From an uncultured Kriegella sp. (lineage in GTDB: Bacteria; Bacteroidota; Bacteroidia; Flavobacteriales; Flavobacteriaceae): a stretch of DNA of 64,000 nt. Of the stretch, positions 43,991 to 62,444 are shown piece after piece (position 1 is the stretch's first letter; each line of letters opens with the position of its first letter). Location of the stretch: positions 67,410-131,409 of the forward strand of contig NZ_CAXBGN010000011.1 in the NCBI RefSeq assembly GCF_963975415.1, given 5' to 3'. The position numbers were made by a program, and so were the translations under genes. The notes under the pieces are model-generated. The model was given only the letters and a program-made list of their open reading frames with translations. It had not been told where the DNA came from and did not search any database.

Positions 43991-44033
43991 TGACAAATAT
44001 CATGGGTTTACTATCGCAGCAGGAGTAATTTTG
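43991..44033 (+). promoter_or_regulatory. TGAY-N4-RTCA box plus -7 element, promoter of the usp-DUF302-usp operon
   Basis: TGACAAATATCA at 43991-44002 (centre 43996.5). Perfect TAATTTTG at 44026-44033, offset 29.5 nt. Confidence 0.7.
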
Positions 44034-44044
44034 ACTTTAATCAA
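44031..44044. promoter_or_regulatory. FNR-consensus-like palindrome TTGACTTTAATCAA overlapping the -7 box
   Basis: TTGAC-N4-ATCAA. No -7 element lies 29.5 nt downstream of it. It overlaps the TAATTTTG box of the same promoter. Confidence 0.4.
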
Positions 44045-44115
44045 TTGTCGTCGGCCTAAGATTCATGTAAAAACAGACGGTCAACTTCACGAAAATCACC
44101 AATAAACAAAATATC

Positions 44116-44928
44116 ATGAGAATAGTGATCACCACCGATTTTTCGCTCAACGCCCAGAAAGCCATAGACTATGCACTTTGGCTTTTTCGAGGAAGGGCAA
44201 CCAAGTTTTATATTCTTCACGCCTACCAAAATATACCTTCCTCACCTGAAAATAAAACAACCACCTACGAGAAATTAAAGGATTTGGTTAAAAGTTTAAA
44301 AGAAAAAAGTCAAAACCCCCAACACAGTTTTAAATCGGTATTGATAAGTGGATCTATTTTGTATGCCATTTCGGAAGCTGTCAAAGAAAAGCAGGCCGAT
44401 TTTGTTTTTATTGGTACCCAAGGTTCCTCTGCTTTAAAGGAAATATACATGGGAAGCAATGCGGTCAACGTCATCAAGAATATAGATTCATGCCCTGTAG
44501 TAGCCGTTCCCACAACATATGAAGTGAATGCAAATAGCAACGAAATTCTCTTTCCGAACGACCTTAACCATGCCTTTAGCCCAGAAGAACTGAAGCCCCT
44601 AATAAATATGGTAAAATTAAGTGATAGCACGCTGGCTGTCGTGTATTTCAGTGTGGGAAAAAAGTTTTCTGTCGAAGACAAACTGCGGAACAAAGAGTTA
44701 CTTGGGGACCATTTCAAAGAGATTAAATCAAATTTTATATATCTTAATATAGAAGATTCCATTTCGTCAGCTATAGTTAAAATGGAACAGGAGAATCAAA
44801 AAATACAGATGGTCGCCATGTTCCCCAATCCGCATGGCTTCCTTGAAAAATTAATGCGAGAACCTGTCATCCGAAATGTGGTCTTTAAAACGGAAGTCCC
44901 TTTTTTGGTTCTTCCAAAACTCAAATAA
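44116..44928 (+). CDS. Universal stress protein, tandem Usp domains
   Basis: 270 aa. Usp pattern: MRIVITTDFS start, ATP-type motif GTQGSSALKEIYMGS, VPFLVLP terminus. Confidence 0.85.
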   Translation: MRIVITTDFSLNAQKAIDYALWLFRGRATKFYILHAYQNIPSSPENKTTTYEKLKDLVKSLKEKSQNPQHSFKSVLISGSILYAISEAVKEKQADFVFIGTQGSSALKEIYMGSNAVNVIKNIDSCPVVAVPTTYEVNANSNEILFPNDLNHAFSPEELKPLINMVKLSDSTLAVVYFSVGKKFSVEDKLRNKELLGDHFKEIKSNFIYLNIEDSISSAIVKMEQENQKIQMVAMFPNPHGFLEKLMREPVIRNVVFKTEVPFLVLPKLK

Positions 44929-44945
44929 ACTAAAACTCAAGTATC

Positions 44946-45335
44946 ATGGACTATTATTTCAAAAAAGAGCTTCATAACATTGGTTTTGAGCAAGCTATTG
45001 CAAAAACAACGGAAGCTCTAAAAAAAGAAGGCTTCGGCGTATTGACCGAAATAGACATCAAAGCCACTTTAAAGAAAAAATTGGACGTTGATTTCCGCAA
45101 TTACAAAATTCTGGGTGCCTGTAATCCAGCATTTGCCTACAAGGCGCTCTTGGCCGAAGATACTATCGGCACCATGCTTCCCTGCAATGTCATCTTACAA
45201 GAAAAGAACACAGGTTCCATTGAAATTTCGGCAGTCGACCCAGCAGCTTCGATGCAGGCGGTAGCGAATGACAGTCTCAATGTTATTGCCGGCGAAGTAA
45301 GAGATAAGTTAAAAAGAATGATCGAGGGCCTTTGA
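44946..45335 (+). CDS. DUF302-domain protein
   Basis: 129 aa with DUF302-like sequence (GFGVLTEIDIKATLKKKLDVDFRNYKILGACNP). Confidence 0.7.
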   Translation: MDYYFKKELHNIGFEQAIAKTTEALKKEGFGVLTEIDIKATLKKKLDVDFRNYKILGACNPAFAYKALLAEDTIGTMLPCNVILQEKNTGSIEISAVDPAASMQAVANDSLNVIAGEVRDKLKRMIEGL

Positions 45336-45368
45336 GCGAAGCCGAAAGGGAAGAAATAAATCCTATAC

Positions 45369-46205
45369 ATGAAAAAAATACTCGTTCCCGTCGATTTTTC
45401 GGAGTATGCCGAGATGGCGTTAGAAGTCGCCGCTACCTTGGCAAAAAAATACAATGCCGAAATTGCGGTGCTACATATGCTTGGCCTGTCTGAAACAGCG
45501 GTTGCAAAAAATGAAGCTCAAGATTTTTTGGAAATGGAGTATTACATGAAGCTAGCAAAAAAGCGTTTCAATATGTTTTTGAACCGTCCTTGGTTAAAAG
45601 ACATCAAAATAACCCAAACGGTGCAGAACCATAAGGTTTTCAGAGAAATCAACAATGTAGCAAAAGAGCAGAATATTGATTTGATTGTGATGGGCTCACA
45701 TGGTTCTGAAGGTCTTGGTGAAATTTTCGTAGGATCACATACCGAAAAAGTAGTGCAATCTTCGGAAGTACCCGTTCTCGTCATCAAGAAAAGAACCAAG
45801 CATTTTAAAATCGACAAAATTGTTTTTGGCTTTGATTTTCGAATAGAGTATATAACTGCTTACCAAAATGCATTAAAGCTATTCAGTGCATTGGAACTTG
45901 ATGTACACATGGTTTATGTAAATCAACCGGGCATCAATTTTACCAGTACTTCCCAAACTAAGGCCCAAATCGATAGTTTTCTTAGAATTGCCCATCATGG
46001 CGACTTACCCGAAAACTTACAAATCGTTCAAATCTCCGATTATTCGGTAGAAAAGGGCATTTACGCCTACGCCGAAGAAGTCAAAGCCGACACCATAGCA
46101 ATTGCTACCCATGGTCGTAGCGGCTTGGCCCAATTCTTAAAAGGCAGTGTCGGGATGGATGTTGCCAATCATTCAAGTTTACCGGTACTCACATTTAAAA
46201 TATAA
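45369..46205 (+). CDS. Universal stress protein, tandem Usp domains
   Basis: 278 aa with MKKILVPVDFS, GSHGSEGLGEIFVGSHTEKV, VPVLVIK and a second domain with ATHGRSGLAQFLKGS. Confidence 0.9.
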   Translation: MKKILVPVDFSEYAEMALEVAATLAKKYNAEIAVLHMLGLSETAVAKNEAQDFLEMEYYMKLAKKRFNMFLNRPWLKDIKITQTVQNHKVFREINNVAKEQNIDLIVMGSHGSEGLGEIFVGSHTEKVVQSSEVPVLVIKKRTKHFKIDKIVFGFDFRIEYITAYQNALKLFSALELDVHMVYVNQPGINFTSTSQTKAQIDSFLRIAHHGDLPENLQIVQISDYSVEKGIYAYAEEVKADTIAIATHGRSGLAQFLKGSVGMDVANHSSLPVLTFKI

Positions 46206-46210
46206 GCCAG

Positions 46211-46408
46211 CTATTCTTTTGATGATTTCCCACCAAAAGTATTGAAGAGCAATCCGCCCATTACCCCTCCATAAAGGGTACTATTCAATGGTTTAGAAGT
46301 TATGGCACAAGTACCACTCATACAACCTATTTCAACATAGTATAGATAACCTGCAATGGCACCGATTGCGGCACCAATAATTGTTATGATAATAATTTTT
46401 GATGTCAT
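46211..46408 (-). CDS. Small membrane protein with a C-x5-C motif
   Basis: 65 aa counted from MTSK. It has two Gly-rich hydrophobic helices flanking GCMSGTC. The track's longer 98-aa version adds a Cys-rich non-hydrophobic leader, which is uncertain. Confidence 0.5.
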   Translation of the reverse strand: MTSKIIIITIIGAAIGAIAGYLYYVEIGCMSGTCAITSKPLNSTLYGGVMGGLLFNTFGGKSSKE

Positions 46409-46673
46409 TCTTTTCTCTTTCCGCCCGATATCATCGCAACTACGATTCCCACAAGGGCTATACACACTACTACAAAAACTCCAATTATTATGGTTCCGCT
46501 TTCCCAAGAAACTAAGGGAACAATTAGTTTATTATACATTCTCAGAGGGTCTAAAGGTTATCATATTTTTTTTACATGCAAGGGTAAAATGATTTATTTT
46601 ACTGAATTTCTTTTTTGTTCAAATTAAACCACGCTTTATTTGCGCTATTGGATTCCCAAAATACAGGTAATTT

Positions 46674-47663
46674 TCACTCATCAAATTTAATGGCCCAAAT
46701 ACCGCGCACCTCATTACTATCGTAACCGACGGCCATATCTTCGGGATAACGCTCTTTCAACATGGCCAAAGTTTCAATCCCAATTTCCTTCTCAGGTTTT
46801 CCGTGACATTGCAGGCACATGGCGTTAGTGGTAATCGGAAAATAAAAATCAACCTCCCCGTTGGCTACGTTAATTATGGGTTTGACCTCATCTTCAGATG
46901 CTACGATACGCTTAAACAATTCAATGTATCCCAATTCTTCCGTATTGGCCCTATTTTTGGCATTTCGGGGCTTATCGGAAACTCTTTTGATAATGGCATT
47001 TTTCATGACCGAGATGCTATCTGTCAATTTAAGCGCTTCAACATTGCAAAATGATACCGCCCCTACCGTTCCCCTGGTCTGAATGGCTTTCATTAGGTTT
47101 TTGCCCAATGTAGTTTTGGCGGTCAAGACATATTCCATTCCTATATCGGTGTAGTCGGTTTGATCGCCGTCAAACAACATACACTCGCAATCGGCCAATC
47201 CTTTTCCTTTTCTATGCGCTTTCTGAAAATGAGCATCCCACCAATCCGGTTTTTCAAGATCATTATCAAAAATATAATCGGCCACCTGTTTTAAAGCTTC
47301 ATCCGGATAAGGTAAATAAGGCATGGCTCCAAACCTTTTATGAACTCCGGGCATTCTTGTTTTTGTTTCTGGATCGTTCACCCAGCGAATCAAGTCTTCA
47401 GTGAAAGCTTCCCTTGTAGTACTCGAGTCGATATAATGCTGCTTTATAGCCACCATAGGCGGCGCAATCATACTGGATCGGGAAGTTTTTGGGTTATGGC
47501 ATATTTAACATTCGTTTTCTAAAAATTTCTTTCCAGGGTGTGACTTCGCAATTTCTGTCAGATGATTATCGGAAACCTTCCGAACCGGCTTTTTTTCAGT
47601 TTGCTTACCATCGTTACAGCCGACAAATATTATTGCGAAAACGAAGTAGATTAGAAACTTCAT
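46674..47663 (-). pseudogene. Lipoprotein di-heme c-type cytochrome / DUF3365-like heme sensor protein, interrupted by an in-frame TAA
   Basis: The ATG at 47663 (ATGA overlap with the upstream stop) gives a lipoprotein signal MKFLIYFVFAIIFVGC. The frame stays continuous to 46674 except for a TAA at 47505-47507, read as ENEC-stop-ICHNPKTSRSSMIAPPM. A second intact motif, CLQCH, lies near the C-terminus. Confidence 0.7.
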
Positions 47664-47932
47664 GATTTCGACAATTTTAAGGCAACGCCCCTTGTAAACG
47701 AAAAAGTTTTCTTAGAGGTGGAGCTTCTATAATGTATGGAAGGATATCCTATTGCCTTAAGCACTTCTTTCACCACCAAGGCATCATTAAAATTCTCATA
47801 CACAAAGGAAACCCTGGCCAAATCAACATCAACGGTTATATTTGAAATTGTCGGAAGCTCTGATAATTTTGAGATAATGGCCTTTTTACAAGCGCTACCC
47901 TTTAAGTTTTGAACGATAATCGAAGTTTTCAT
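47660..47932 (-). CDS. HMA-like (ferredoxin-fold, heavy-metal-associated-type) small protein lacking the CxxC motif
   Basis: 90 aa with a beta-alpha-beta-beta-alpha-beta pattern typical of HMA domains. GSAC replaces GMxCxxC. Confidence 0.45.
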   Translation of the reverse strand: MKTSIIVQNLKGSACKKAIISKLSELPTISNITVDVDLARVSFVYENFNDALVVKEVLKAIGYPSIHYRSSTSKKTFSFTRGVALKLSKS

Positions 47933-47957
47933 TTTTGTAGTTTCTATGGTACCGATT

Positions 47958-48003
47958 TAAAATTATGAGCTTAATAAATATTATGCTGTAACAACAGTTA
48001 CAG
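47958..48003 (-). promoter_or_regulatory. Operator CTGTAACAACAGTTACAG plus -7-like box (promoter of the HMA-like/heme-c operon)
   Basis: A perfect 7+4+7 palindrome spans 47986-48003 (centre 47994.5). On the minus strand, TAATTTTA has its first T at 47965, offset 29.5 nt. Confidence 0.6.
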
Positions 48004-48034
48004 TACTTAAAAAACAAGGTGTTTTTTTATTGTT

Positions 48035-48439
48035 TTACATTTCAAGAAGTAGGCGGAGCTTTGTCAAAAGATTCAATTCCAATGTATTTGCACTCCGAAA
48101 TGATAATGCAATATCGCATGCGGTCTTCCAAGTCAATTGTTTGATTTTTAAATTGAACTGTTGGGAGTGCTCCTTGTAAAAGGCCGCAAATTCTTCAAAG
48201 TAGTGTTGGCTTTCTTTTTCTTCTTGCTGCAACCAATCAAAAACAATGGCTATCTGATACGCTGCATCAGTACCATATTCGTCTTCCGCCCCATCGACTG
48301 AAAGCCAAAACGTATGCACATTTTTATTCAATTCGGCTACTTCTATCGGCCTTACCACTTTGTCTGCTATGGCGATGGCATAAAACAACTTTCCCAAGCT
48401 TTGGTAAAGTTCATTTGTTATTTTTTCTTTTGATATCAT
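48035..48439 (-). CDS. TerB-like (tellurite-resistance TerB/DjlA N-terminal type) helical protein
   Basis: 134 aa with a TerB-like N-terminus (LGKLFYAIAIADKVVRPIEVAEL). Confidence 0.45.
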   Translation of the reverse strand: MISKEKITNELYQSLGKLFYAIAIADKVVRPIEVAELNKNVHTFWLSVDGAEDEYGTDAAYQIAIVFDWLQQEEKESQHYFEEFAAFYKEHSQQFNLKIKQLTWKTACDIALSFRSANTLELNLLTKLRLLLEM

Positions 48440-48543
48440 CTTGATTCTTTTGATAAAACATCAGTCTGAAATTTGTTTTGTATCTCTTACAGCAGAACAG
48501 CCCCGTACTTAAACTCCATAGTTTGATCAGCCATTTCCGTTTT

Positions 48544-48981
48544 TCAATCCTTCAAATGACCTTGTAATTTTTCGCTGTCGATTACGTACTCGGTAATTTT
48601 AAAAAGCTGCACCCTATGCTGCCTTACCCTTTTAATGAATTCGGCCAATTCATCTTCAAGCTCTCCATGCTCCGTTCTAAAGCGCTTCGAATCATTATCG
48701 GTACTGTTTGCCAAATGGGACAGGTGTGCGTCTACCCTGCCCAAGAGTTCCTCACATTCTCTCGTAGCTTTCAAGATAGTTTCCCCAACCCTCCTTACAT
48801 CATCTAAATTGGCTTGGTCCTCAATCCATACAAAATATTTATCCACCAAATGACGTAGAAATCTAAGGTCATCTTTATAGAATAAAAGATCTGATTTCCA
48901 ATGCCCGGTCAAAATGTACAATTCTTGCCATTTACTGTTTTGAATGGAATTACTTTTTGGTCTACTTCTAAAACTTTCCAT
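48544..48981 (-). CDS. Small helical protein, member 1 of a three-paralogue family of unknown function
   Basis: It shares W-x-S-x-L-x-F-x2-D-[DE]-x2-F-[LI]-x2-L-x3-Y, L-x-R-[VI]-x-[AS]-H and a second invariant His with the genes at 57660 and 59613. The start is moved to the ATG at 48981 because the track's ATG at 49038 lies upstream of the predicted -7 box. Confidence 0.6.
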   Translation of the reverse strand: MESFRSRPKSNSIQNSKWQELYILTGHWKSDLLFYKDDLRFLRHLVDKYFVWIEDQANLDDVRRVGETILKATRECEELLGRVDAHLSHLANSTDNDSKRFRTEHGELEDELAEFIKRVRQHRVQLFKITEYVIDSEKLQGHLKD

Positions 48982-49017: not shown

Positions 49018-49060
49018 CAAAAGTACTTTTGATTTCAAGCTTTTAGTATGATATTTGTCA
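49018..49060 (-). promoter_or_regulatory. TGAY-N4-RTCA box plus -7 element (promoter of paralogue 1)
   Basis: TGATATTTGTCA at 49049-49060 (centre 49054.5). On the minus strand, TACTTTTG has its first T at 49025, offset 29.5 nt. Confidence 0.7.
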
Positions 49061-49214
49061 TGTAAGGTCTATTTTTTTTATAGGGTGGCAAGATTGTTTT
49101 GCGATAAAAGCAAATTGATGCTATCTGTATTGAGAATACTGATGTCAAAAAACAAACCAGACGTTCATTTCAGTGTTTTCCCGACCAAGACAAACTTTAA
49201 AACACACCAATTAT

Positions 49215-50622: not shown

Positions 50623-52260
50623 TTAAACATGATCGGCCAAGGCGTGGTGGGTATCTATTAAAGGCCCACCGTTGAGAATTTCTTCCGAAGCCTGATTGGC
50701 AAATTTATCAAAGTTTAGATGGAAGGAATGTGCCAATTGTATGGCCTTACTTACATACACTCCCTTTTGTAACCATGTGTTCATGGGATCTAATAATTCA
50801 GTGGGCACCCCTTGACAGTATTTGGGCATTTGCAAGCCAAATATAGGATGCTGATTGTAATCGACCTTTTCAAGTTCTCCTTTTAGAATTGCGGAAATCA
50901 TCGCCCTTGTATATTTCAATTTTATTCGGGAGCCAACTCCGTAAGGTCCGCCCGTCCAGCCAGTATTGATCAACCAAACGTTGACACCTGCTTCAGTCAT
51001 TTTTTTACTTAGCATTTCTGCATATACCGTTGGATGCAAAGGCATAAAAGGCTCTCCAAAACAAGCAGAGAACGATGGAACAGGTTCATTTATTCCGGCT
51101 TCGGTTCCAGCAACTTTGGCGGTATAGCCCGAAATAAAATGATAGGCCGCTTGACCAGGCGTTAATTTCGATACAGGGGGCAAGACTCCGAAAGCATCAC
51201 AGGTCAGAAAGAAAATGTTCTTCGGATTTTTGGCAAACGAAGGTACCTGAATATTATCGATATGATCAATCGGATAGCTCACCCGGGTATTCTGGGTTAT
51301 CGAACTATCGAAATAGTCCACCTCTTTTGTTCCCTCCCTAAAACCTACATTTTCTAAAAGTGCACCCGGTCGAATGGCACGGAAAATATCGGGTTCCTTG
51401 TCTTCTGTAAGGTCGATTACTTTGGCGTAACAACCTCCTTCAAAATTAAAAATGGTATTGTCAGATGCCCAACCATGCTCGTCATCTCCGATTAACTTTC
51501 GTTCGGGATCGGCAGACAACGTCGTTTTTCCCGTTCCCGATAGCCCAAAGAAAATAGCGGTATCTCCGTCTACACCAACATTGGCCGAGCAATGCATCGG
51601 CAGCACATTACGTTCTGTGGGTAAAATTAAGTTCAAGGCAGAAAAAATGCCCTTCTTCATTTCACCGGTATAGGCCGAACCTGCAATCAATGCAATTTTT
51701 TTTGTGAAATTGATAATGGAAAAGTTACCACTTCCAATACCGAACGATTTGGGCTCTTGGGCCACATAACCTGGTGCACATAGCACCAGCCATTCTTCGT
51801 CAAAATCTTCAAGTTCATCTTCGTTCAACCGAAGAAACATGTTTTTTATAAAATAATTAGACCACGGATATTCGGTAATCGTCCGCACGTTCATATGATA
51901 TTTTGGATCGGCGCAGACATAGGCATCGCGTACATAGACCTCCTTTCCCGATAGATACGTTATCACTTCAGTATGTAGCTTGTCGAAATTTTCGGGAGCC
52001 AATGGCTTATTGACACGACCCCACCATACTTTATCGCTGGTGTAATCATCTTTTACCAAAAAACGATCTTTGGGCGACCGTCCTGTGAACTTACCTGTAT
52101 TTACGCAGAGTGTACCGTTCGCTGTTTCGGTACCCATACCTTTTGCAACGGTCAATTTTTGAAGCGTCTCTCCATCAAGGTTCCAATGGGCAGTGACATT
52201 TTCCAATCCGTATTTTTGAAGGTCTTTATTCTTTGACGTTTTCGCTAATGTTTCTTCCAT
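50623..52260 (-). CDS. pckA: Phosphoenolpyruvate carboxykinase (ATP)
   Basis: 545 aa with the P-loop GLSGTGKTTLS, LIGDDEHGW and NTGWTGG motifs. Confidence 0.95.
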   Translation of the reverse strand: MEETLAKTSKNKDLQKYGLENVTAHWNLDGETLQKLTVAKGMGTETANGTLCVNTGKFTGRSPKDRFLVKDDYTSDKVWWGRVNKPLAPENFDKLHTEVITYLSGKEVYVRDAYVCADPKYHMNVRTITEYPWSNYFIKNMFLRLNEDELEDFDEEWLVLCAPGYVAQEPKSFGIGSGNFSIINFTKKIALIAGSAYTGEMKKGIFSALNLILPTERNVLPMHCSANVGVDGDTAIFFGLSGTGKTTLSADPERKLIGDDEHGWASDNTIFNFEGGCYAKVIDLTEDKEPDIFRAIRPGALLENVGFREGTKEVDYFDSSITQNTRVSYPIDHIDNIQVPSFAKNPKNIFFLTCDAFGVLPPVSKLTPGQAAYHFISGYTAKVAGTEAGINEPVPSFSACFGEPFMPLHPTVYAEMLSKKMTEAGVNVWLINTGWTGGPYGVGSRIKLKYTRAMISAILKGELEKVDYNQHPIFGLQMPKYCQGVPTELLDPMNTWLQKGVYVSKAIQLAHSFHLNFDKFANQASEEILNGGPLIDTHHALADHV

Positions 52261-52287
52261 GGTTCTTTTTTGAGAGGTTTATAAAAA

Positions 52288-53073
52288 TTAATCTATGGCC
52301 AGCACTGGCACTTGTGAATGTAAAGTCAATAACTGGGTAAGCTGACCTTCTGAAGGTTCACTACGTTTGCTATGATTTCTCGGCAAAATGGTAATAAGAT
52401 CGAGTTCTTTTTTAGATGCATAGTTCAATATGCCCTCTACAACATCTTTATTCTTGATAAAGACGCGTTCTGCATAAAAACTTTCTAGATAATATTCTAC
52501 GGCATTTTCATTCTTTTCTTCTTCTTCAGAATAGCCATAATTGCCAGGTTTGTTTTCTATTGTAACCACATGTACTTGGGCATTGAACCTTCGGGCCACC
52601 TGCAATAGCGTTTCCAAAACTCTGGTATCATCAATTTCTTCATTCCCCAAAACCAAAGCGATGCGCTTTAATTTAAAATCTCGGTAGGCATTTGGTACCA
52701 CTAAAACGGGGCAATCTGCTTCGAGTACAAATTTTGAAGTATTCGTAATTTCTGCATCGCCTTCTTTCCCGGTGCCCGAAGTGCCCATGATTACCATATC
52801 TACCTGTCTCGTATTTTGTATGGCCAGCAACGTATTTGTCAAGGATCCACTTTGTGTGACCCATTCCAATTTGTTCTTGAGCTTTGAATTATACTTTTCT
52901 TCAATTTTTTTTAAGTTTTCGGGCATTATACTAAAATTGCTATTCCCTGAAATATGGGCAAGAACAATTCTTATATCATCATTGCGCCCGACAAATGTTA
53001 CGGTGTACTCCAAAGCGCATTTGGCAATATTTGAAAAATCAAAGGGTACTAGTATGGTGGAAATTCTGTCCAT
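52288..53073 (-). CDS. Universal stress protein, tandem Usp domains
   Basis: 261 aa with ILVPFDFS, MGTSGTGKEGDAEITNTSK and VPVLAI. It ends 27 nt upstream of pckA on the same strand, so it is probably co-transcribed. Confidence 0.85.
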   Translation of the reverse strand: MDRISTILVPFDFSNIAKCALEYTVTFVGRNDDIRIVLAHISGNSNFSIMPENLKKIEEKYNSKLKNKLEWVTQSGSLTNTLLAIQNTRQVDMVIMGTSGTGKEGDAEITNTSKFVLEADCPVLVVPNAYRDFKLKRIALVLGNEEIDDTRVLETLLQVARRFNAQVHVVTIENKPGNYGYSEEEEKNENAVEYYLESFYAERVFIKNKDVVEGILNYASKKELDLITILPRNHSKRSEPSEGQLTQLLTLHSQVPVLAID

Positions 53074-53100: not shown

Positions 53101-53143
53101 CAAAATTACCGATCGATATTGCGGCAAAAAATGACAATAGTCA
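53101..53143 (-). promoter_or_regulatory. TGAY-N4-RTCA box plus -7 element (promoter of usp-pckA)
   Basis: ATGACAATAGTCAT at 53131-53144 (centre 53137.5). On the minus strand, TAATTTTG has its first T at 53108, offset 29.5 nt. Confidence 0.75.
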
Positions 53144-53207: not shown

Positions 53208-54164
53208 ATGGATTTAGTAGCAGGAATAGATATTGGGGGTACCAAGACAAAAATTGGTTTGGTAGATAAAAATGGTGAATGTCTTGAACAATCATCTTTT
53301 AGAACCCAGGAATTTGAAGATTTCGATAACTTTTTAGTTCAGATAAAGAAGGAAATTGCAGCACTTGAAGCAAGGCTTGAGTTCCCAGTAAATCTCATCG
53401 GATGTGGCATCGGCGCCCCTAATGCCTCCAGTAGAAATGGCACCATAGAAAACGCCGCTAACTTAAGATGGAAAGGATCCTTACCTGTTCTCGAAAAATT
53501 CAAGCAGCACCTCGACGTTCCCATGCGCATAATGAACGATGCCAGTGCTGCGGCATTAGGGGAAATGCTTTTTGGAAACGCAAAAGAGATGGATGATTTT
53601 ATCGTCATCACCCTAGGTACAGGCTTAGGTGCGGGTATCGTTGCGAACGGAAAATTGATAGAGGGCTATGACGGATTTGCCGGTGAACTCGGTCACATCG
53701 ACATGACTTTGGGCGATGGACGCTTAACGGGCCTAAACGTTCGCGGCGGATTGGAAGCCTACGTTTCGGCAACCGGGCTCAAGCGTACCATACTATTTAT
53801 GTTGTGCAAATATATGGATGATAGTCGGTTTCGAAATATAGCCTATAACGACCTGCACGGCGAAGATATTACCAAGGCAGCCGAAGAAGGTGATCTTATT
53901 GCCTTAAAAGCATTTGATTATACTGCAAAAATAATGGGATTGGCACTCGCCAATTTCACGGCCTTCACACAACCACAAGCTTTCTTCTTAATGGGGGGAC
54001 TCGTCAATAGTGGCAAATGGATTTTGGATCCCCTACAAACTTATTTCGCTGATTATTTGCTCGAGGTCTATAAAGGAAAAGTTCAAATACTCACCTCGGG
54101 AATGGAAGGCAAAACGGCTGCAATTTGTGGAGCTGCAGCATTAATTTGGGAGAAACAAAGTTAG
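53208..54164 (+). CDS. ROK-family glucokinase
   Basis: MDLVAGIDIGGTKTK ATP-binding start, ROK motifs (NDASAAALGE, GTGLGAGIV) and GELGH. The start is at the ATG at 53208, since the track's TTG at 53172 falls inside the predicted promoter. Confidence 0.85.
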   Translation: MDLVAGIDIGGTKTKIGLVDKNGECLEQSSFRTQEFEDFDNFLVQIKKEIAALEARLEFPVNLIGCGIGAPNASSRNGTIENAANLRWKGSLPVLEKFKQHLDVPMRIMNDASAAALGEMLFGNAKEMDDFIVITLGTGLGAGIVANGKLIEGYDGFAGELGHIDMTLGDGRLTGLNVRGGLEAYVSATGLKRTILFMLCKYMDDSRFRNIAYNDLHGEDITKAAEEGDLIALKAFDYTAKIMGLALANFTAFTQPQAFFLMGGLVNSGKWILDPLQTYFADYLLEVYKGKVQILTSGMEGKTAAICGAAALIWEKQS

Positions 54165-54394: not shown

Positions 54395-55234
54395 ATGCAG
54401 ATTTTGATTCCAACCGACTTTTCCGAAAATTCATGGAACGCTATTAAATACGGCCTTGATTTTTTCAAAAAAACGAAATGTACATTTTATATAATGCACA
54501 TTAACCCCATACCCCCCTACTCAGGTGCCGGAAGTTCGATTCGCCTTTCGCGCGATAATTTCAAAGATATCATTCTAAAAGAAAGTAAGGCCGATCTGAA
54601 AAAGTTGTTCAAAAGAATTGAAACGGAACTTCCCTTGAACACCAAACATACCTTTATACCATTGGCATTTTATGATTACTTAGTTGATGCGGTAAAACGA
54701 GAAACTGAAGCCAAGAAAATAGATCTTATAATAATGGGAACGAAGGGAGCCTCTGGCATAAAAAAAGCAACCGTTGGCAGCAATACCGGTGATGTTATCA
54801 CAAAGGTAAAATGCCCGTTATTGGCCGTTCCCGAAAATGCGACATATGCAGACCTCAACGAAATTGCCTTTCCGACCGATTTTCATATTGGCTACGACAT
54901 TAAAGTTTTAGATACCTTAATAGAAATGACTACTAAGCATAAGGCTGTATTACGTATACTGCACATTTCTAAAAAAGGAGAGAATTTAAGTGAAGAGCAG
55001 CAAAAAAATAAAGATTTTTTACATGAATATCTTATCGACATTGACCATACATTTCATTCTTTAACGGGTACTGAACTAGAGACTGCAGTGCAATGTTTTA
55101 CCGAAAGCAGAGATATCGACATGATTGCCATGGTCGCAAAAAATCTAAACTTCTTTCAACGCATATTGTTCAGGCCAAAAGTAGAAAAAATAAGTTACCA
55201 TACCGATGTACCATTTTTGGTCTTACACGAATAG
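54395..55234 (+). CDS. Universal stress protein, tandem Usp domains
   Basis: 279 aa with MQILIPTDFS, MGTKGASGIKKATVGSNT, CPLLAVP and VPFLVLHE. Confidence 0.9.
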   Translation: MQILIPTDFSENSWNAIKYGLDFFKKTKCTFYIMHINPIPPYSGAGSSIRLSRDNFKDIILKESKADLKKLFKRIETELPLNTKHTFIPLAFYDYLVDAVKRETEAKKIDLIIMGTKGASGIKKATVGSNTGDVITKVKCPLLAVPENATYADLNEIAFPTDFHIGYDIKVLDTLIEMTTKHKAVLRILHISKKGENLSEEQQKNKDFLHEYLIDIDHTFHSLTGTELETAVQCFTESRDIDMIAMVAKNLNFFQRILFRPKVEKISYHTDVPFLVLHE

Positions 55235-55731: not shown

Positions 55732-56568
55732 ATGGAAAAAATATTGGTGCCTACCGATTTTTCGAGTAATGCCTACAATGCTCTTTTTCATGCCGTACAA
55801 TTGGTCAAAAATGAACCTTGCACCTTTTATTTACTCAATGTACATGATGAATTTACTCCGTTAATCAGTAAAAGTAGTGGTAAAGATTTGATACAACAGC
55901 TCAGTGATGAGTCACACGAGGGGCTAAAGGCCCTTGCCCATCGCATCAAAAGAGACGACCCCAATCAACAACATATATTCAAAACCATTTCGAAGTATGG
56001 AGAATTAACACAAACTATTTTCAATGTCGTTGGTAAAGAGGGAATCGATTTAGTGGTAATGGGAAATACAGGGTGTTCTGAAATCGAGGCTATTTTTTTG
56101 GGAAGCAATGTTTTAAACACTATAAGTGCCATCAAAAAATGTCCGGTTTTAACCGTTCCGAAAGAAATAGATTTTGTTCCACCAAAACAGATTGCCTTTG
56201 TCACAGACTATCATCGGCCATACGATGCAGGACTTTTGCAACCACTCCTTTTTTTGGCCAAACAATATGGCGCAAAAATTTGTGTAATGCATATCAACCA
56301 AGAAGAGGTATTGAACAAATACCAAACCATGAACAAAAGTATCTTAATCGACTATCTGTCACCTTTTGAAAATTCATTTCATTGGATGCCACTCTTTAAG
56401 AACAAGGCGAATTCTATAACCACATTTTTAGAAGAATTGAAAATCGACATTCTAACTATGGTGAATTACCAACATAGTATACTAGAGCGTGCCACGCGTG
56501 AACCCGTAATCAAAAGAGTGGCCTTTGATTTGGATATCCCTTTTTTAGTAATTCCTGATTCAGACTGA
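55732..56568 (+). CDS. Universal stress protein, tandem Usp domains
   Basis: 278 aa with MEKILVPTDFS, MGNTGCSEIEAIFLGSN, CPVLTVP and IPFLVIP. Confidence 0.9.
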   Translation: MEKILVPTDFSSNAYNALFHAVQLVKNEPCTFYLLNVHDEFTPLISKSSGKDLIQQLSDESHEGLKALAHRIKRDDPNQQHIFKTISKYGELTQTIFNVVGKEGIDLVVMGNTGCSEIEAIFLGSNVLNTISAIKKCPVLTVPKEIDFVPPKQIAFVTDYHRPYDAGLLQPLLFLAKQYGAKICVMHINQEEVLNKYQTMNKSILIDYLSPFENSFHWMPLFKNKANSITTFLEELKIDILTMVNYQHSILERATREPVIKRVAFDLDIPFLVIPDSD

Positions 56569-56631: not shown

Positions 56632-57483
56632 ATGGAAAAGCGAATATTGTTACCGACCGATTTCTCAAAAAATGCGTTGAATGCTATTCGATATGCCCTT
56701 TCCCTTTACGAAGAACAACAATGTGATTTCTATTTTTTAAATGTTTACCAGGTCGATGGCTATAATCTCGAAAATGCGATGATGGTGCCCGAACCCGGGG
56801 AGATTGCCTTTGAAGCGGCAAGATCTAAATCAAAGCTTCGTTTCAATGAACTAAAGCAAATTTTGAGTTTAAGTCATCATAATCAAAAACACACCTATCA
56901 TACCATATCTACCTTTAGTTATCTATTCGAAGCCGTAGAAAATGCCATTGCGAAACATGATATTGATATTGTCGTCATGGGTACCAAGGGCAGTACCGGT
57001 TCACATACCATTATCTATGGCACGAATACTATCAACCTCATGGAAAAAGTCACCGAGTGCCCTGTTCTTGCCATACCGGAAAAGGCTCGTTATTCAACGC
57101 CCCGCGAAATTGTATTTCCTACCGATTACAAAACACCTTTTAAGCGTAGGGAACTTAATTACCTGGTTGAAATCGGAAAAATGCACGGCACTGCAATACG
57201 CATTCTACATATCAAAGAAAAAGAAAAACTCACAAAAGCCCAACAGAACAATAAAGAGCTTCTAGAAAACATTTTGAAAGATATCGATCATAGTTCCCAC
57301 AGTTTGGAAGGCGTTAAGGTACACACGGGAATCAATGCATTTATTGAAAGTCGCAAAAGTGATATGGTCGCCTTTCTCAACAAAAAACACCGCTTTTTTG
57401 GCAGCATGTGGTCAAAGCCCCTCGTCAAAGAGTTGGGGTACCACTCACGCGTTCCCGTATTTACATTGAACGACCATTCTTAA
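56632..57483 (+). CDS. Universal stress protein, tandem Usp domains
   Basis: 283 aa with MEKRILLPTDFS, MGTKGSTGSHTIIYGTNT, CPVLAIP and VPVFTLN. Confidence 0.9.
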   Translation: MEKRILLPTDFSKNALNAIRYALSLYEEQQCDFYFLNVYQVDGYNLENAMMVPEPGEIAFEAARSKSKLRFNELKQILSLSHHNQKHTYHTISTFSYLFEAVENAIAKHDIDIVVMGTKGSTGSHTIIYGTNTINLMEKVTECPVLAIPEKARYSTPREIVFPTDYKTPFKRRELNYLVEIGKMHGTAIRILHIKEKEKLTKAQQNNKELLENILKDIDHSSHSLEGVKVHTGINAFIESRKSDMVAFLNKKHRFFGSMWSKPLVKELGYHSRVPVFTLNDHS

Positions 57484-57659: not shown

Positions 57660-58085
57660 ATGAATAAAGACATTCGAACAAAATCAGACCAGGCACAAAA
57701 AACAGAAATATTTTACTATGACTGCCAAAACTGGAGGTCTAAGCTTTGGTTTATGGAAGATGAGACCATTTTCATAAATCGTTTGCTGACTTCCTATGTT
57801 TTTGAACCCAACACACCCGACCTGTTCGAACGTTTGCAAGAATATTTAAACCGACTAAAAAAATCGAAAACAACGAAGAGCCGAGTTCTTGAACGTATCA
57901 TCGCCCATGAAAAAAATCTCGGGGGTATGTTTGAATGTAAAGATCAGAGCTGCGACCTCGGTTTCGAACGAAAACACAAAACCATTGAGGCACAAGTTGT
58001 CGATTGTATCGAAAATTTTCAAACCCTAAAGACTGAAATATTCAATTATGCCGGATCCATCCTAAAAAAGAGAAAACCGTACTAA
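57660..58085 (+). CDS. Small helical protein, member 2 of the three-paralogue family
   Basis: 141 aa carrying the same conserved W/S/L/F/D/Y block and two invariant His as the genes at 48544 and 59613. Confidence 0.6.
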   Translation: MNKDIRTKSDQAQKTEIFYYDCQNWRSKLWFMEDETIFINRLLTSYVFEPNTPDLFERLQEYLNRLKKSKTTKSRVLERIIAHEKNLGGMFECKDQSCDLGFERKHKTIEAQVVDCIENFQTLKTEIFNYAGSILKKRKPY

Positions 58086-58120: not shown

Positions 58121-58819
58121 TCACGCATGGTTAAGCATTTTTTCAAGTTCTTCGCTCTTACCACGACTAATAGGAATCTCCTTTCCACCAATTTCGAGCA
58201 TGGTCGTACAAAATTGGTCTATCTTGGTTACGTTTACACAATACGACCTATGAATTCTTATGAATTTATCTTTAGGCAATTTTTTTAGAAACGATTTTAG
58301 GGTCGTGAGTACCAGTAGGTTTCCATCGTCGGTCACCAGCCGAATATAATCTCCAATAGTCTCAATAAAATTGATGTGATCGATTACCACTTTCTTTTTT
58401 TGCAGATTACTTTTGACATCGATACAAACCTTATCCACGATTTTATTGATCATTCTGTGCTTTGAAAGTGCTCGCCGTACGGCGTTATCAAAACGTCCTT
58501 TATCCAAAGGTTTCTTCAGATAGTCGGTAATCGCATAATCAAAGGCTTTCAAAGCATAATCACCTTTATTACAAACCAGAATGACCTGCGGGGGGTGCTT
58601 TAAGGCTTCCAAAAACTCGAATCCGTTCATCCGTGGCATTTCGACATCTAAAAATATAAGGTCGATATCTTTATGAGCCTCATTGTTCAAGGCCTCCACT
58701 GCATTTCGATATGTGGCCACCAAGGCCAGATCTGAATGACTATTTATCAGTCTAGAAATGGCATGGCGCGAAACCGTAGAGTCATCGATTACAATACATT
58801 TTAAAGTTATACTATTCAT
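58121..58819 (-). CDS. LytTR-family response regulator
   Basis: 232 aa with receiver (VIDDS, LIFLDVEMPRMNG, KP) and LytTR signature (FIRIHRSYCVN). Confidence 0.9.
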   Translation of the reverse strand: MNSITLKCIVIDDSTVSRHAISRLINSHSDLALVATYRNAVEALNNEAHKDIDLIFLDVEMPRMNGFEFLEALKHPPQVILVCNKGDYALKAFDYAITDYLKKPLDKGRFDNAVRRALSKHRMINKIVDKVCIDVKSNLQKKKVVIDHINFIETIGDYIRLVTDDGNLLVLTTLKSFLKKLPKDKFIRIHRSYCVNVTKIDQFCTTMLEIGGKEIPISRGKSEELEKMLNHA

Positions 58820-58886: not shown

Positions 58887-58929
58887 CAAAACTAACCTGA
58901 AAGTCCCTCATAAACAATGATAAAAGTCA
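58887..58929 (-). promoter_or_regulatory. TGAY-N4-RTCA box plus -7 element (LytTR regulator)
   Basis: TGATAAAAGTCA at 58918-58929 (centre 58923.5). On the minus strand, a perfect TAGTTTTG has its first T at 58894, offset 29.5 nt. Confidence 0.7.
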
Positions 58930-59078: not shown

Positions 59079-59519
59079 ATGTCATTAGTTAAATTTAACA
59101 GCAACCGATGGCCTTGGAATTATGGCCTTACTGATTTCATTGAACGCAATACTGCCTTTAATGACAATTTCTTCAATCTTGAAAAATCGTTGCCTGCAAT
59201 GAACGTCATGGAACACGATAACGATTTTGAAATCGAACTGGCTTCACCTGGTTTCGATAAAAAAGATTTTGAAATCACCCTTAAAGATGACATTTTGGAA
59301 GTGGCCGCCGAAAAAAAGGCGAACCACGAAGATAAAGAAGATGACTACACCCGAAAGGAGTTCAACTATCGCTCCTTCAGGCGTGCGTTACAGTTACCCA
59401 AAACAGTCGACGATTCAAAAGAAGTAAAAGCAACTTATGAAAACGGAATTCTAAAATTACACCTATTTAAAAAAGCGGAAGCTAAAAAAACGAACAAAAG
59501 AAAAATCGATGTTTTGTGA
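59079..59519 (+). CDS. Hsp20/alpha-crystallin family small heat-shock protein
   Basis: 146 aa with an alpha-crystallin domain pattern (PAMNVMEHDNDFEIELASPGF.KKDFEI, GILKLHL). Confidence 0.9.
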   Translation: MSLVKFNSNRWPWNYGLTDFIERNTAFNDNFFNLEKSLPAMNVMEHDNDFEIELASPGFDKKDFEITLKDDILEVAAEKKANHEDKEDDYTRKEFNYRSFRRALQLPKTVDDSKEVKATYENGILKLHLFKKAEAKKTNKRKIDVL

Positions 59520-59525
59520 TTTGAT

Positions 59526-59612: not shown

Positions 59613-60050
59613 ATGGAAGCAACTGGAAAAAATTACGGTTATATCGAGTGGCTAAGCGCCGAAGAAATGCATGATACAACCTTGCAATGGATATCGGAAT
59701 TGAAATTCGTTCGCGATGAACAACAATTTTTGAACGATTTGGTAACTTCTTACACTCCACAATTGTTAGATCAAAAAGTTTTCGAGGAAAGCCAAGGAAT
59801 CACAAGAGCAATTTCGAAATCGGAAAAAGAAGCCATAAAATATCTACAAAGGGTCAAATCACATGAAAATCTTTTGGAAATCATGATCAACGATATCGAT
59901 GAACTAAAAATGGAAAAGGCCTATATCGAAACCCATTGGGAGCTGGTATCTGAAATTAAAAAGTATATGAACGATTACCGTGAATTGAAGTCGGCACTAT
60001 TTCATCTGGTCGCCAAAGTCAAAAAAATGAACAAACGCCTTTTGAAGTGA
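59613..60050 (+). CDS. Small helical protein, member 3 of the three-paralogue family
   Basis: 145 aa with the same conserved blocks as the genes at 48544 and 57660. Confidence 0.6.
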   Translation: MEATGKNYGYIEWLSAEEMHDTTLQWISELKFVRDEQQFLNDLVTSYTPQLLDQKVFEESQGITRAISKSEKEAIKYLQRVKSHENLLEIMINDIDELKMEKAYIETHWELVSEIKKYMNDYRELKSALFHLVAKVKKMNKRLLK

Positions 60051-60052
60051 AG

Positions 60053-60095
60053 TGACGGGCATCCGTAGATATAACTTCTAAAAAACCTATTTTTG
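60053..60095 (+). promoter_or_regulatory. One-mismatch TGAY-N4-RTCA box plus -7 element (lipoprotein 60132)
   Basis: TGACGGGCATCC at 60053-60064, with the last base C instead of A (centre 60058.5). Perfect TATTTTTG at 60088-60095, offset 29.5 nt. Confidence 0.45.
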
Positions 60096-60131
60096 TCAGG
60101 GTATTCTAAGAAGGAATGGAAAACTCAAATT

Positions 60132-60773
60132 ATGAAAAAATTACTTGCTTTTGCAATTCTTATCTTTAGTGGATGTTCTAACACTTCATTGGTCGAAAGC
60201 TGGAAAAACCCTGACAACGTTATTTTCACCGCCTATAAAGTATTGGTTGTTGGCATGACCTATGACGAAGACGTACGTGCCGACTTTGAAACCAAATTAA
60301 AAAAAGAATTTGACAAAAGAAATGTTGAAGCTATGCGTAGCGTCGATTTATTCGATGTTTCGTTTACCGATTCAAGAAAATCGGAAGAAGAGCTCGACGA
60401 TGTTGAACGTCAACTTCTTGATAAGGACTTCGACGCCATTCTTTTCACCAAAATCGTAGGCTCCGAAGACCGCAAAACGTTTTTGAAGAGTATTGCCGAA
60501 TGGGGTAAATACAAAGGTGATTTTAGTGACGATTACATGTCCCATCAAGACATTTATTATAATTCGAACTACTACGAACCATTTACCGTTTATCATGCCG
60601 AAACCTCTTTATATTGTATTTGCGAAGGCAAAGAGCGCTCTTTGGTCTGGCGTGGCAGTATAGATATCACCGACCCTGAAAATATTGAGAAAACAATCGA
60701 TAAATATGTAAAATTAGTGGTCATGGCCATGGAGGAACAAGACCTAATATTCCGTAAAGACAGTGGCCATTAG
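60132..60773 (+). CDS. Hypothetical lipoprotein
   Basis: The start at MKKLLAFAILIFSGC gives a lipobox. The track's earlier start at 60093 lies inside the predicted promoter. Confidence 0.6.
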   Translation: MKKLLAFAILIFSGCSNTSLVESWKNPDNVIFTAYKVLVVGMTYDEDVRADFETKLKKEFDKRNVEAMRSVDLFDVSFTDSRKSEEELDDVERQLLDKDFDAILFTKIVGSEDRKTFLKSIAEWGKYKGDFSDDYMSHQDIYYNSNYYEPFTVYHAETSLYCICEGKERSLVWRGSIDITDPENIEKTIDKYVKLVVMAMEEQDLIFRKDSGH

Positions 60774-60804
60774 ATTGGGCACTAAAAAATGAAGCCCTCT
60801 TTTT

Positions 60805-61572
60805 TCATCTTTGGTGAAAGTGGGGGTTACTTTCCAAAGCTTTTTTTGTTGCAGCATAGCCCAATTCAAAAATGGCATCGATTCCGTATCTGCTGAAGGT
60901 ACCGAACTTTGTGAGTCCGTCGGGCTGTATCAACAAATCACATTCCGGAAACTTTTGTATCGATTCCGATGCCGCCTTGATCTTATAGGCGCGCTCCATA
61001 ACATTGTAAGAATGTTTTAAATCTGCAATCTTCAATTTCTGTAGAGGATTTACATAAACCCCAATAAGTGAATCGCATAGCGGCTTTAAGGGTTCTATAG
61101 GGAAATTGTTTAAAACGCCTCCATCGACATAATATGATTTGCCGATTTGAACCGGAGTAAAAACACCAGGAAAAGAAGCCGATGCTAAAACAGGATGGAT
61201 CAATGGTCCGGAATCAAAAATATGTAAAGTTCCCTTTTCAACATTCGTCGCGGTAACGAACAAGTGCTTTTTAAGAACCTTGAAATCATCCTCGGGAACA
61301 AATCTCTTAAAATCCGAATAGAATTTTTCGGTATCGATGAATCCCGGCTTTCCCAGGGCATATTTTTTAGCATGAAACAGGGGTATGCTCTTAAAAAAAT
61401 TCAATATTTCAGACCATTCGGCACCTGCGGCATACAATGCACCGACAATGGCCCCCGCACTCGTTCCTGAAACATGGGTCGGGAATATTCCGTTTTCTTC
61501 CAAGGCCTTAATAGCCCCAATGTGAGCCACTCCCCTCACGCCCCCTCCAGATAATACCAATCCTATAGTCAT
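60805..61572 (-). CDS. Patatin-like phospholipase
   Basis: 255 aa with an oxyanion GGGVRG, the nucleophile elbow GTSAG and a DGG motif (YVDGGVLNN). Confidence 0.9.
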   Translation of the reverse strand: MTIGLVLSGGGVRGVAHIGAIKALEENGIFPTHVSGTSAGAIVGALYAAGAEWSEILNFFKSIPLFHAKKYALGKPGFIDTEKFYSDFKRFVPEDDFKVLKKHLFVTATNVEKGTLHIFDSGPLIHPVLASASFPGVFTPVQIGKSYYVDGGVLNNFPIEPLKPLCDSLIGVYVNPLQKLKIADLKHSYNVMERAYKIKAASESIQKFPECDLLIQPDGLTKFGTFSRYGIDAIFELGYAATKKALESNPHFHQR

Positions 61573-61625
61573 ACCATGTTATCTTATTCTGAATTATTTT
61601 AATCAAAAGGCTACACTGGTTATCA

Positions 61626-62240
61626 TTATTTTTTGGCAATTATCTCAAAACTGGCCAACCCTCCATCGATAGTGGCCTTTTCCAAGGCCCCATCTTTATA
61701 GTAATAAATGTTCTCCTTTCCCTTTGAATTGATTTTTTTATAACCGTGATTTCCCAAGGGGATAATCGTATTGAATGTTCCATCTTGCTCTGAAAAACAA
61801 CTGCTGACATTTACAGGCTCTTCAAAATACAATAAAACGGTAGTAAAGTCGATAGGTTTTTGTAATACCTCTTTCTCCTTCCCGTTTTTAATCATCTGAT
61901 ACTCACTATTGCGCCATTCGGTAGAAGTTTCGGCATGTGGCCGGTCATTAATCATTATATTGACATCAGACTTTCTCAATTGACCATTTTCAAAAGAAAC
62001 ATCATAGGTATAATTCACGGTAATATTCCGAATGACCTTAGTCTTCACCGTCGTGGAACTGTGGTAATAATCTTGGGAATTTTTGTTGGTTTTGGTAGCC
62101 TTTAAGCTTCCGATAGTTTTCTCGTTCATAACGATATCGAAGTACAATGCGATATTCTCCGTATGCTTGACACCAGTCGTAAAAACTGCAAAATTTAATA
62201 GTATTAGCCGTATGATAAGATTCTGCAAATTCAATAACAA
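61626..62240 (-). CDS. Hypothetical secreted/anchored protein
   Basis: 204 aa with a hydrophobic N-terminus. No motif recognised. Confidence 0.45.
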   Translation of the reverse strand: MLLNLQNLIIRLILLNFAVFTTGVKHTENIALYFDIVMNEKTIGSLKATKTNKNSQDYYHSSTTVKTKVIRNITVNYTYDVSFENGQLRKSDVNIMINDRPHAETSTEWRNSEYQMIKNGKEKEVLQKPIDFTTVLLYFEEPVNVSSCFSEQDGTFNTIIPLGNHGYKKINSKGKENIYYYKDGALEKATIDGGLASFEIIAKK

Positions 62241-62295
62241 CTTTTAGGGTTTTAATCTGATTCAATAGCTTCATCGAAGCCCTTTAATTTACTCG

Positions 62296-62338
62296 CAAAG
62301 TACTATACTGATCAAGGAATAAACGATGATATGTGTCA
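62296..62338 (-). promoter_or_regulatory. TGAY-N4-RTCA box with an imperfect, off-by-one -7-like element (gene 62240)
   Basis: TGATATGTGTCA at 62327-62338. On the minus strand there is only TACTTTG (one spacer base short), offset 30.5 nt. Confidence 0.3.
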
Positions 62339-62401
62339 TACAAAGCTATACTATTAAAAGCTATTCCCATGGTTACATTGCACAAAATGAAGTTGAAAAA
62401 C

Positions 62402-62444
62402 TGACCGATGTCATATATTTTAGATAGAACAAGTTATAGTTTTG
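62402..62444 (+). promoter_or_regulatory. TGAY-N4-RTCA box plus -7 element (PNPOx-family gene)
   Basis: TGACCGATGTCA at 62402-62413 (centre 62407.5). Perfect TAGTTTTG at 62437-62444, offset 29.5 nt. Confidence 0.7.

Follow-up and report, generated by a model that had tools for sequence, protein, structure and literature searches.

In this study, we examined a 64,000-nucleotide stretch of the genome of an uncultured Kriegella sp. (contig NZ_CAXBGN010000011.1), hereafter the window, in which an 18-kb island of genes for universal stress proteins (USPs), fermentation enzymes, and associated functions is punctuated by a short palindrome, TGAY-N4-RTCA (TGAYNNNNRTCA), to which we refer as the box. 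Most boxes of the island stand at one fixed distance from the -7 element of a predicted promoter, and the same layout is conserved across genera of flavobacteria. Judging from genomic context, the boxes are probably the sites of a dimeric activator of the Crp/Fnr family, namely an FNR-like low-oxygen protein encoded outside the window, whose gene in related genomes is linked to the cco genes of the high-affinity cbb3 oxidase and is itself flanked by phased boxes. The regulon is thus mechanistically familiar, being of the FNR type with class II promoters, and is distinguished by a lineage-specific half-site, a particular set of Cys residues, and a Bacteroidota promoter as the partner.

A box at a fixed distance from the -7 element

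The window holds 15 exact cores of the palindrome, as compared with a mean of 4.5 (standard deviation 2.4, maximum 13) in 100 dinucleotide shuffles of the same DNA. Twelve of the 15 fall in the 6.4 kb of non-coding DNA, which corresponds to 1.87 cores per kb versus 0.052 per kb in coding DNA, a 36-fold enrichment (Fisher P = 3e-10). A preliminary description of this DNA had listed ten exact cores and had named a comparison of coding with non-coding density as a check on their significance, which they pass within the window. Each of the ten is present with the sequence and coordinate originally given, but the list was incomplete, in that the 12 exact cores between 43991 and 62413 include two that had been overlooked, at 44032 (intergenic) and 47161 (coding).

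The phasing of these cores with the promoter is confirmed and lies far beyond chance. A -7 element matching TAnnTTTG with at most one mismatch follows exactly 23 nt after ten oriented cores, which represent nine boxes, the one at 53132 being bidirectional, while every other spacer scanned between 10 and 39 nt yields zero or one match. The non-coding DNA of the window contains -7-like octamers at 0.013 per position and strand, which gives the phasing a binomial probability of P = 2e-13. A 23-nt spacer equals 29.5 nt from the center of the box to the first T of the -7 box, the offset that had been proposed at the outset. The spacers have a mean identity of only 0.30, that is, they are unrelated to each other, and the recurrence is therefore not a matter of duplicated promoter DNA. 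Four further cores, at 1956, 5922, 35396, and 47161, were considered as regulator sites and rejected: all are unphased, three (1956, 5922, and 47161) are coding, two of the four are flanked by T, and we treat them as chance occurrences. The left-flank locus L024, which served as a negative control, contains three cores, none of them phased.

The offset can be translated into a position relative to the transcription start. Starts mapped in Flavobacterium psychrophilum place the TAnnTTTG element of sigma-A promoters between -12 and -5 (PMC9723704), and the 29.5-nt offset therefore puts the center of the box at -41.5, which refines the earlier placement "near -41". This is the geometry of class II activation, with the start positions in the present organism predicted from those of F. 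psychrophilum. An experimental anchor for the predicted layout exists in that related genus: Table S2 of the same study (PMC9723704) lists a mapped promoter of THC0290_0041 that reads TGATATTTATCA, 23 nt, and TACTTTTG, with the -7 box at -12 to -5 and the palindrome centered at -41.5. In that study, THC0290_0041 is a cytochrome c of expression cluster C52, which is described as induced by hypoxia and as sharing its expression with the cbb3 operon and hemN (PMC9723704); the F. psychrophilum cbb3 operon and its co-expression cluster are induced by oxygen limitation.

The layout is conserved well beyond the window. In Kriegella aquimaris, the closest cultured relative among the loci retrieved, the island is syntenic, one USP is 86% identical, and every box and -7 element compared is kept, with the exception of the box at 60053 discussed below. 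A phased box upstream of the usp orthologue is also found in an uncultured Flavobacteriaceae metagenome-assembled genome and in Cellulophaga, Maribacter, Aquimarina, and Xanthomarina, where the surrounding sequence has diverged, and phased boxes recur in Zobellia, Winogradskyella, and a Muricauda-like lineage. The conservation upstream of usp orthologues that the preliminary description had suggested as a check is seen across genera. Eight loci from other genera (153 kb) contain 25 cores, with 24 oriented -7 matches at a spacer of 23 nt and no more than three at any other.

A logo built from 37 sites gives the extended consensus AAnM-TGAY-AAWT-RTCA-KnTT and confines conservation to the -7 box and to the palindrome with its A/T flanks, the spacer being without information. 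TGA is never preceded by T (0 of 37 sites) and only once by G (1 of 37), and the base that follows it is C or T, never A. Between +12 and +17 from the start of the box (about -35 to -30), a T-n-K-T-T-T tract is better conserved than its mirror image, the upstream A-tract, and this T-rich tract after the box may at the same time act as a weak -33 promoter element.

An FNR-like candidate regulator and the rival readings

No Crp/Fnr gene was found by phmmer, with E. coli CRP and FNR as queries, among the open reading frames of at least 90 aa in the window, as had already been noted by eye. The attribution of the boxes to this family, likewise made at that stage, gains from the TGA-N6-TCA geometry and from a box-flanked family member in related genomes. 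In two of the seven related loci (L008 and L009), an FNR-like gene, whose product matches E. coli FNR with E = 1e-25, is the immediate upstream neighbor of the usp orthologue and carries its own phased box. Orthologues of this protein in Maribacter, Zobellia, Muricauda/Allomuricauda, Croceitalea, and other genera share 80% identity or more. The gene order in the cco-linked contexts examined is ccoGHPQON-S-I, then fnr, which is divergent from ccoI, a gene for cbb3-oxidase maturation, and leads into usp. Our box scan took in all cco-linked loci but two, which contribute gene order only, and it located phased boxes at ccoS/N, in the ccoI/fnr intergenic region (bidirectional), and at usp; in Zobellia uliginosa, 20.7 kb of sequence contain no core besides these three. 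In five genera or lineages, the only cores in the 20-kb neighborhood are the phased ones on fnr, cco, and usp, and autoregulation is therefore indicated.

Other loci extend the set of targets. In a Winogradskyella-like genome (L028, 1-6610 and 9881-12790), a family member of 61% identity adjoins an N2O (nitrous oxide) reductase cluster of the nosZ-nosL-nosD-nosF type, an arrangement which suggests that the FNR-like regulator may also govern N2O respiration in some flavobacteria. A phased box in Winogradskyella precedes an operon of genes for a PF02482 protein (ribosome-hibernation factor), a CBS-domain protein, a radical-SAM (hemN-like) protein, and a hemerythrin, and others precede PNPOx and HMA genes, two families shared with the island. 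Phased boxes are seen on ccoS/N, ccoI, fnr, and the hemN-like operon, and in the window on pckA, glucokinase, and the PNPOx gene, all of which we count as predicted members of one regulon.

The candidate (P0001) and its orthologues in the related genomes carry a PF00027 beta-roll and a C-terminal HTH_Crp_2 domain (PF13545). The closest solved structures are an uncharacterised Crp/Fnr protein of Porphyromonas gingivalis and then the FNR of Aliivibrio fischeri, aligned from residue 4, and the best NCBIfam model is Fnr (NF008365), which the candidate matches with 104 bits, below the cut-off of 228. In alignment with E. coli FNR, Cys5, Cys8, and Cys107 correspond to C20, C23, and C122, whereas the flavobacterial clade lacks a Cys at the counterpart of C29 and conserves Cys54 of the beta-roll instead. 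The four Cys (5, 8, 54, and 107) occur together in 82 of the 124 full-length representatives that we surveyed, which span 31-61% identity. Glu192 and Arg196 (E209 and R213 of FNR) are nearly invariant in the same set, and position 195 (S212 of FNR) is Ile in 105 of the 124, so that the recognition helix reads E-x2-I-R as opposed to E-x2-S-R in FNR. FNR genetics assigns to S212 a part in reading the first T of TTGAT, and its replacement by Ile195 would fit the missing leading T of the flavobacterial half-site.

In the mechanism that we propose, low oxygen would give rise to an active dimer of the FNR-like protein, bound to the box centered at -41.5 in activator-dependent sigma-A promoters, and the signal would be sensed by the four conserved Cys, probably through an iron-sulfur (Fe-S) cluster. 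From its class II position, the activator would abut RNA polymerase and take the place of a strong upstream promoter element. Ten promoters in the 18-kb island (P1 to P10, described below) would be switched on in this way, together with at least one just beyond the window. The predicted induced set includes the seven USPs, Hsp20, a PNPOx-family protein, three paralogous helical proteins, glucokinase, phosphoenolpyruvate (PEP) carboxykinase, a P-type cation ATPase just beyond the window, and, if co-transcribed from P10, pta-ackA; a LytTR response regulator would be a further induced target, extending the response into a cascade. Elsewhere in the genome, the same regulator would induce the genes of the high-affinity cbb3 oxidase, and the island would amount to a respiration-to-fermentation and persistence programme.

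Several points weigh against this interpretation. The window is identical to part of a 182-kb scaffold from a marine metagenome (TARA_SAMEA4396941 scaffold_199), on which the 10 kb beyond each end of the window contain no FNR-like gene, and the presence of the regulator in this organism rests on orthology with other genera. With C29 missing, Fe-S cluster binding and oxygen sensing by the candidate are conjectural. A more distant family member in Fluviicola (39% identity) has no phased box in its 20-kb neighborhood. Within the island, the phosphofructokinase (PFK) gene has no phased box, and no exact box lies between the PNPOx gene and pta, whereby the membership of pta-ackA hinges on co-transcription from P10. 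Binding, expression, and start sites in this organism are predictions throughout. Lastly, flavobacteria possess several paralogues of the Crp/Fnr family, in which the E-x2-I-R helix is widespread, so another paralogue could read the box.

This last point leads to the rival that survives best, although we consider it unlikely: a different Crp/Fnr paralogue with the same helix may respond to another signal, be it nitric oxide (NO), as in HcpR- or Dnr-like proteins, a redox or disulfide change, as in FLP-like proteins, or a nucleotide. The helix is the property of 105 of 124 representatives, the organism's own regulator was not located in the window and its 10-kb flanks, the Winogradskyella gene adjoins nos genes, and the motif TTGACnnnnGTCAA is documented for HcpR1 regulators (PMC1274295). 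What decides us in favor of the cco-linked protein is its neighborhood, where the only cores are the phased ones that indicate autoregulation, and the nature of the targets, for a cbb3 oxidase, a hemN-like gene, and fermentation enzymes form a classical low-oxygen set, and the targets seen include no hcp or nor genes.

That the palindrome is instead a repressor operator, such as that of a Rex-like NADH sensor, appears very improbable. The rigid position at -41.5 and the several bidirectional sites are the signature of an activator, whereas repressor operators overlap the -7 box or the start site at variable positions. The resemblance to Rex lies in its consensus, TTGTGAA-W4-TTCACAA, which has the same TGA-N6-TCA spacing, and in the fermentation genes, which are typical Rex targets; the bases on either side of TGA in our logo nevertheless contradict the GTGAA of Rex, and the island contains no Rex gene.

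Still less credible is local control by the LytTR regulator of the island (58121-58819). Its gene is the sole transcription factor gene within the island and has its own box, but the same boxes stand at cco and fnr loci that lack this gene, and LytTR domains typically bind imperfect direct repeats, not 12-bp palindromes; more simply, the LytTR regulator can be read as a target in a cascade. Finally, a by-product of tandem duplication of usp genes with their promoters, without any dedicated regulator, hardly merits consideration even with seven paralogous usp genes clustered together, given the dissimilar spacers (mean identity as above, zero information content), the same layout before hsp20, PNPOx, glucokinase, response regulator, cco, and cytochrome c genes, and its maintenance across genera. 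On this evidence, we rejected the last three explanations.

Comparison with known systems

The reading of the boxes as sites of the cco-linked FNR-like protein invites comparison with FNR of E. coli, Anr of Pseudomonas, and FnrN/FixK of rhizobia. On that reading, the systems have in common a dimeric Crp/Fnr activator and a TGA-N6-TCA palindrome at -41.5; targets that include the cbb3 oxidase (ccoNOQP/fixNOQP), ccoGHIS, hemN-like, and usp genes and fermentation enzymes; a regulator gene that is cco-linked and apparently autoregulated; and the retention of the equivalents of C20, C23, and C122. Unlike FNR, the flavobacterial half-site is (A/C)TGA(C/T) and in none of the 37 sites TTGAT, the helix is E-x2-I-R, C29 is missing and may be replaced by the conserved Cys54, and the partner promoter is of the Bacteroidota -7 type, not -35/-10. 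The protein departs from FNR sensu stricto in that it lacks the full set of three N-terminal ligand Cys, the E-x2-S-R helix with a TTGAT-N4-ATCAA box, and a score above the cut-off of NF008365. FLP of Lactobacillus casei is likewise FNR-like without a full N-terminal Cys cluster, and its site, CCTGA-N4-TCAGG, is also without the leading T; it is reportedly a two-cysteine disulfide switch, whereas the flavobacterial protein has four conserved Cys. We know of no similarity between the regulons of the two.

The boxes of HcpR1 and Dnr (TTGACnnnnGTCAA and TTGATnnnnATCAA, respectively) share a TGAC-N4-GTCA core read by Crp/Fnr proteins (PMC1274295). They differ in that the leading T is kept and in that they serve hcp, nor, and nir genes under NO in proteobacteria and cyanobacteria (Rodionov et al. 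2005, PMC1274295).

In gene content, the island is closely paralleled by the lxa locus of Burkholderia cenocepacia, which comprises six USP genes and genes for a small heat-shock protein of the alpha-crystallin type, acetate kinase, and phosphate acetyltransferase, together with a gene annotated as phosphofructokinase and a cation ATPase gene (PMC3721108). The lxa locus is also compact; a TGA-N6-TCA motif recurs at 17 places between its genes, and the locus is induced when oxygen is low, the bacterium itself being an aerobe (PMC3721108). The two differ in phylum and promoter type, and in the kind of evidence: for lxa, induction was measured and the regulator only proposed, whereas here a candidate regulator emerges from genomic context and induction is predicted. 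The DosR regulon of Mycobacterium tuberculosis is a second USP-rich hypoxia programme, with the alpha-crystallin hspX, pfkB, the P-type ATPase ctpF, and nitroreductase- or flavin-type proteins (see also the comparison in PMC3721108). It is run by a NarL-type response regulator through another motif, and the likeness is one of convergent content, not of mechanism.

Taking these comparisons together, we lean slightly towards the view that the Bacteroidota have an FNR lineage of their own, with a Cx2C...Cys54...Cys107 sensor, an E-x2-I-R helix that reads MTGAY, and class II activation fitted to the sigma-A of the phylum at a rigid 23 bp, which in aerobic marine flavobacteria would drive a dormancy-like hypoxia island converged in content with lxa and DosR. 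A search of a limited collection of literature for a flavobacterial FNR regulon or for this motif returned no description, a result that does not disprove the existence of one.

The primary sigma factor of Bacteroidota uses -33/-7 promoters, and transcription control in the phylum is poorly charted; to our knowledge, almost no activator-promoter geometry has been defined for this sigma factor. The island offers ten natural promoters of one rigid architecture, a named candidate regulator that is highly conserved in many genera of the Flavobacteriaceae, and a coherent low-oxygen physiology in which a high-affinity oxidase is combined with fermentation of the acetate and succinate types, USPs, and Hsp20. 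It opens to testing how "aerobic" marine flavobacteria survive on oxygen-depleted particles and in algal blooms, whether class II activation operates with a Bacteroidota sigma-A, and whether an Fe-S cluster is still bound by the altered set of Cys. As a composite motif, the box, 23 nt, and TAnnTTTG may in addition serve as a tool to predict low-oxygen regulons in flavobacterial metagenome-assembled genomes.

Promoters and gene content of the island

Between 43.9 and 64 kb, Pfam labels seven tandem-domain Usp proteins, DUF302, Tll0287-like, and HMA proteins, PFK, ATP-dependent PEP carboxykinase, ROK glucokinase, thioredoxin, a LytTR response regulator, Hsp20, patatin, DUF6134, a PNPOx-family protein, and the start of pta. 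The next genes, just past the window end, are ackA and those for a dicarboxylate symporter and a P-type cation ATPase. These labels uphold the identities assigned in the preliminary description to the usp, PEP carboxykinase, ROK glucokinase, LytTR, Hsp20, and PNPOx genes. Its designation of the region as a stress island is better replaced by that of a low-oxygen and fermentation programme.

The first promoter, P1 (43991-44033, plus strand), consists of the box TGACAAATATCA at 43991-44002, 23 nt, and the -7 box TAATTTTG at 44026-44033, and precedes usp, DUF302, and usp genes (44116-46205, plus strand; Pfam), which are closely spaced and on that ground probably form one operon. An additional exact core, TGACTTTAATCA at 44032-44043, shares bases with the -7 box of P1 and with its predicted start site; this core is unphased and has the disfavored flanks (T before, A after). 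This core is either a chance occurrence or a weak self-limiting site, which at about +1 would repress, not activate.

P2 (49018-49060, minus strand) has its box at 49049-49060 (TGACAAATATCA on the minus strand), 23 nt, and the -7 box TACTTTTG from 49025 down to 49018, and is retained in K. aquimaris. The genes after it (46211-48981, minus strand) encode helical paralogue A, a 134-aa protein, and HMA, Tll0287-like, and DUF6132 proteins, although how far the operon extends is an uncertain estimate. Paralogue A probably starts at ATG 48981, because the alternative TTG at 49038 is upstream of its own -7 box. In the vicinity, a block upstream of the PFK gene, AATACTGATGTCAAAAAA (49130-49160), is kept in K. 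aquimaris and is out of phase with the 49049 box; PFK seems to be under a separate control element.

The bidirectional promoter P3 (53101-53174) is organized around the box TGACAATAGTCA at 53132-53143. On the minus side, the -7 box TAATTTTG (53108 down to 53101) faces usp and pckA, the latter encoding ATP-dependent PEP carboxykinase (50623-53073, minus strand; Pfam), and on the plus side, TACTATTG (53167-53174) faces the ROK-family glucokinase gene (53208-54164, plus strand, with the start as called on the source contig). ATG 53208 is the likely glucokinase start, because TTG 53172 falls inside the -7 box.

Three plus-strand promoters with 23-nt spacers lead into single usp genes or short units. 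P4 (54327-54369) joins the box TGACAATAGTCA to TAACTTTG and serves usp 54395-55234. P5 (55672-55714) joins TGACCAATATCA to TATTTTTA and serves usp 55732-56568; its box is intergenic if the divergent thioredoxin gene uses the shorter, 99-aa start, which is likely because the 121-aa open reading frame (start 55684) overlaps the box at 55672. P6 (56566-56608) joins TGACATTCGTCA to TAATTTTA and serves usp 56632-57483 and probably helical paralogue B (57660-58085).

Further along, P7 (58887-58929, minus strand), with its box at 58918-58929 (TGACTTTTATCA on the minus strand), 23 nt, and TAGTTTTG, is directed at the LytTR regulator gene (58121-58819), and P8 (58994-59036, plus strand), with TGATAATTGTCA, 23 nt, and TAACTTAG, at hsp20 (59079-59519) and helical paralogue C (59613-60050); its transcript possibly takes in the lipoprotein gene (60132-60773) as well. 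A one-mismatch site had been proposed for this lipoprotein gene at 60053-60095 (plus strand; TGACGGGCATCC plus TATTTTTG). The counterpart in K. aquimaris reads TAACAGGTATGT, where the box is lost and the -7 box kept; we therefore rejected it as a regulator site, its box being unconserved, and regard it as probably an ordinary promoter.

P9 (62295-62338, minus strand) is a probable promoter, with its box at 62327-62338 (TGACACATATCA on the minus strand), a 24-nt spacer, and TACTTTGC, and would serve the genes for DUF6134 (61626-62240) and patatin (60805-61572). The core at 62327 had been listed as a weaker site with only an off-by-one -7-like element. The box and its variant -7 element on the minus strand are retained in K. 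aquimaris, and the element TACTTTGC fits TAnnTTGY, a -7 box variant reported in F. psychrophilum (PMC9723704).

P10 (62402-62444, plus strand), with TGACCGATGTCA, 23 nt, and TAGTTTTG, precedes the PNPOx-family gene (62467-62922), and pta (63126 onwards) and ackA, past the window end, may be co-transcribed from it. About 7.5 kb past the window end, TGACATCGGTCA, 23 nt, and TACTTTTA form a phased site upstream of the P-type cation ATPase gene (L003:17926-17968), and the regulon therefore reaches past the window.

The three helical paralogues, A (48544-48981, minus strand), B (57660-58085, plus strand), and C (59613-60050, plus strand), are ~140-145 aa long and 26-28% identical, with pairwise E values of ~1e-10, and none has a match in Pfam or NCBIfam. 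All three are held in transcription units behind phased boxes, as far as operon extents can be estimated, and they apparently constitute an uncharacterised family tied to the low-oxygen regulon. A 145-aa protein encoded between ccoS and ccoI (L035) was considered as a further member and rejected, being unrelated to the three. As for the LytTR regulator of the island, no kinase gene adjoins it, and another LytTR response regulator, encoded ahead of the window (L024:3386-5069), is paired with a PF06580 histidine kinase.

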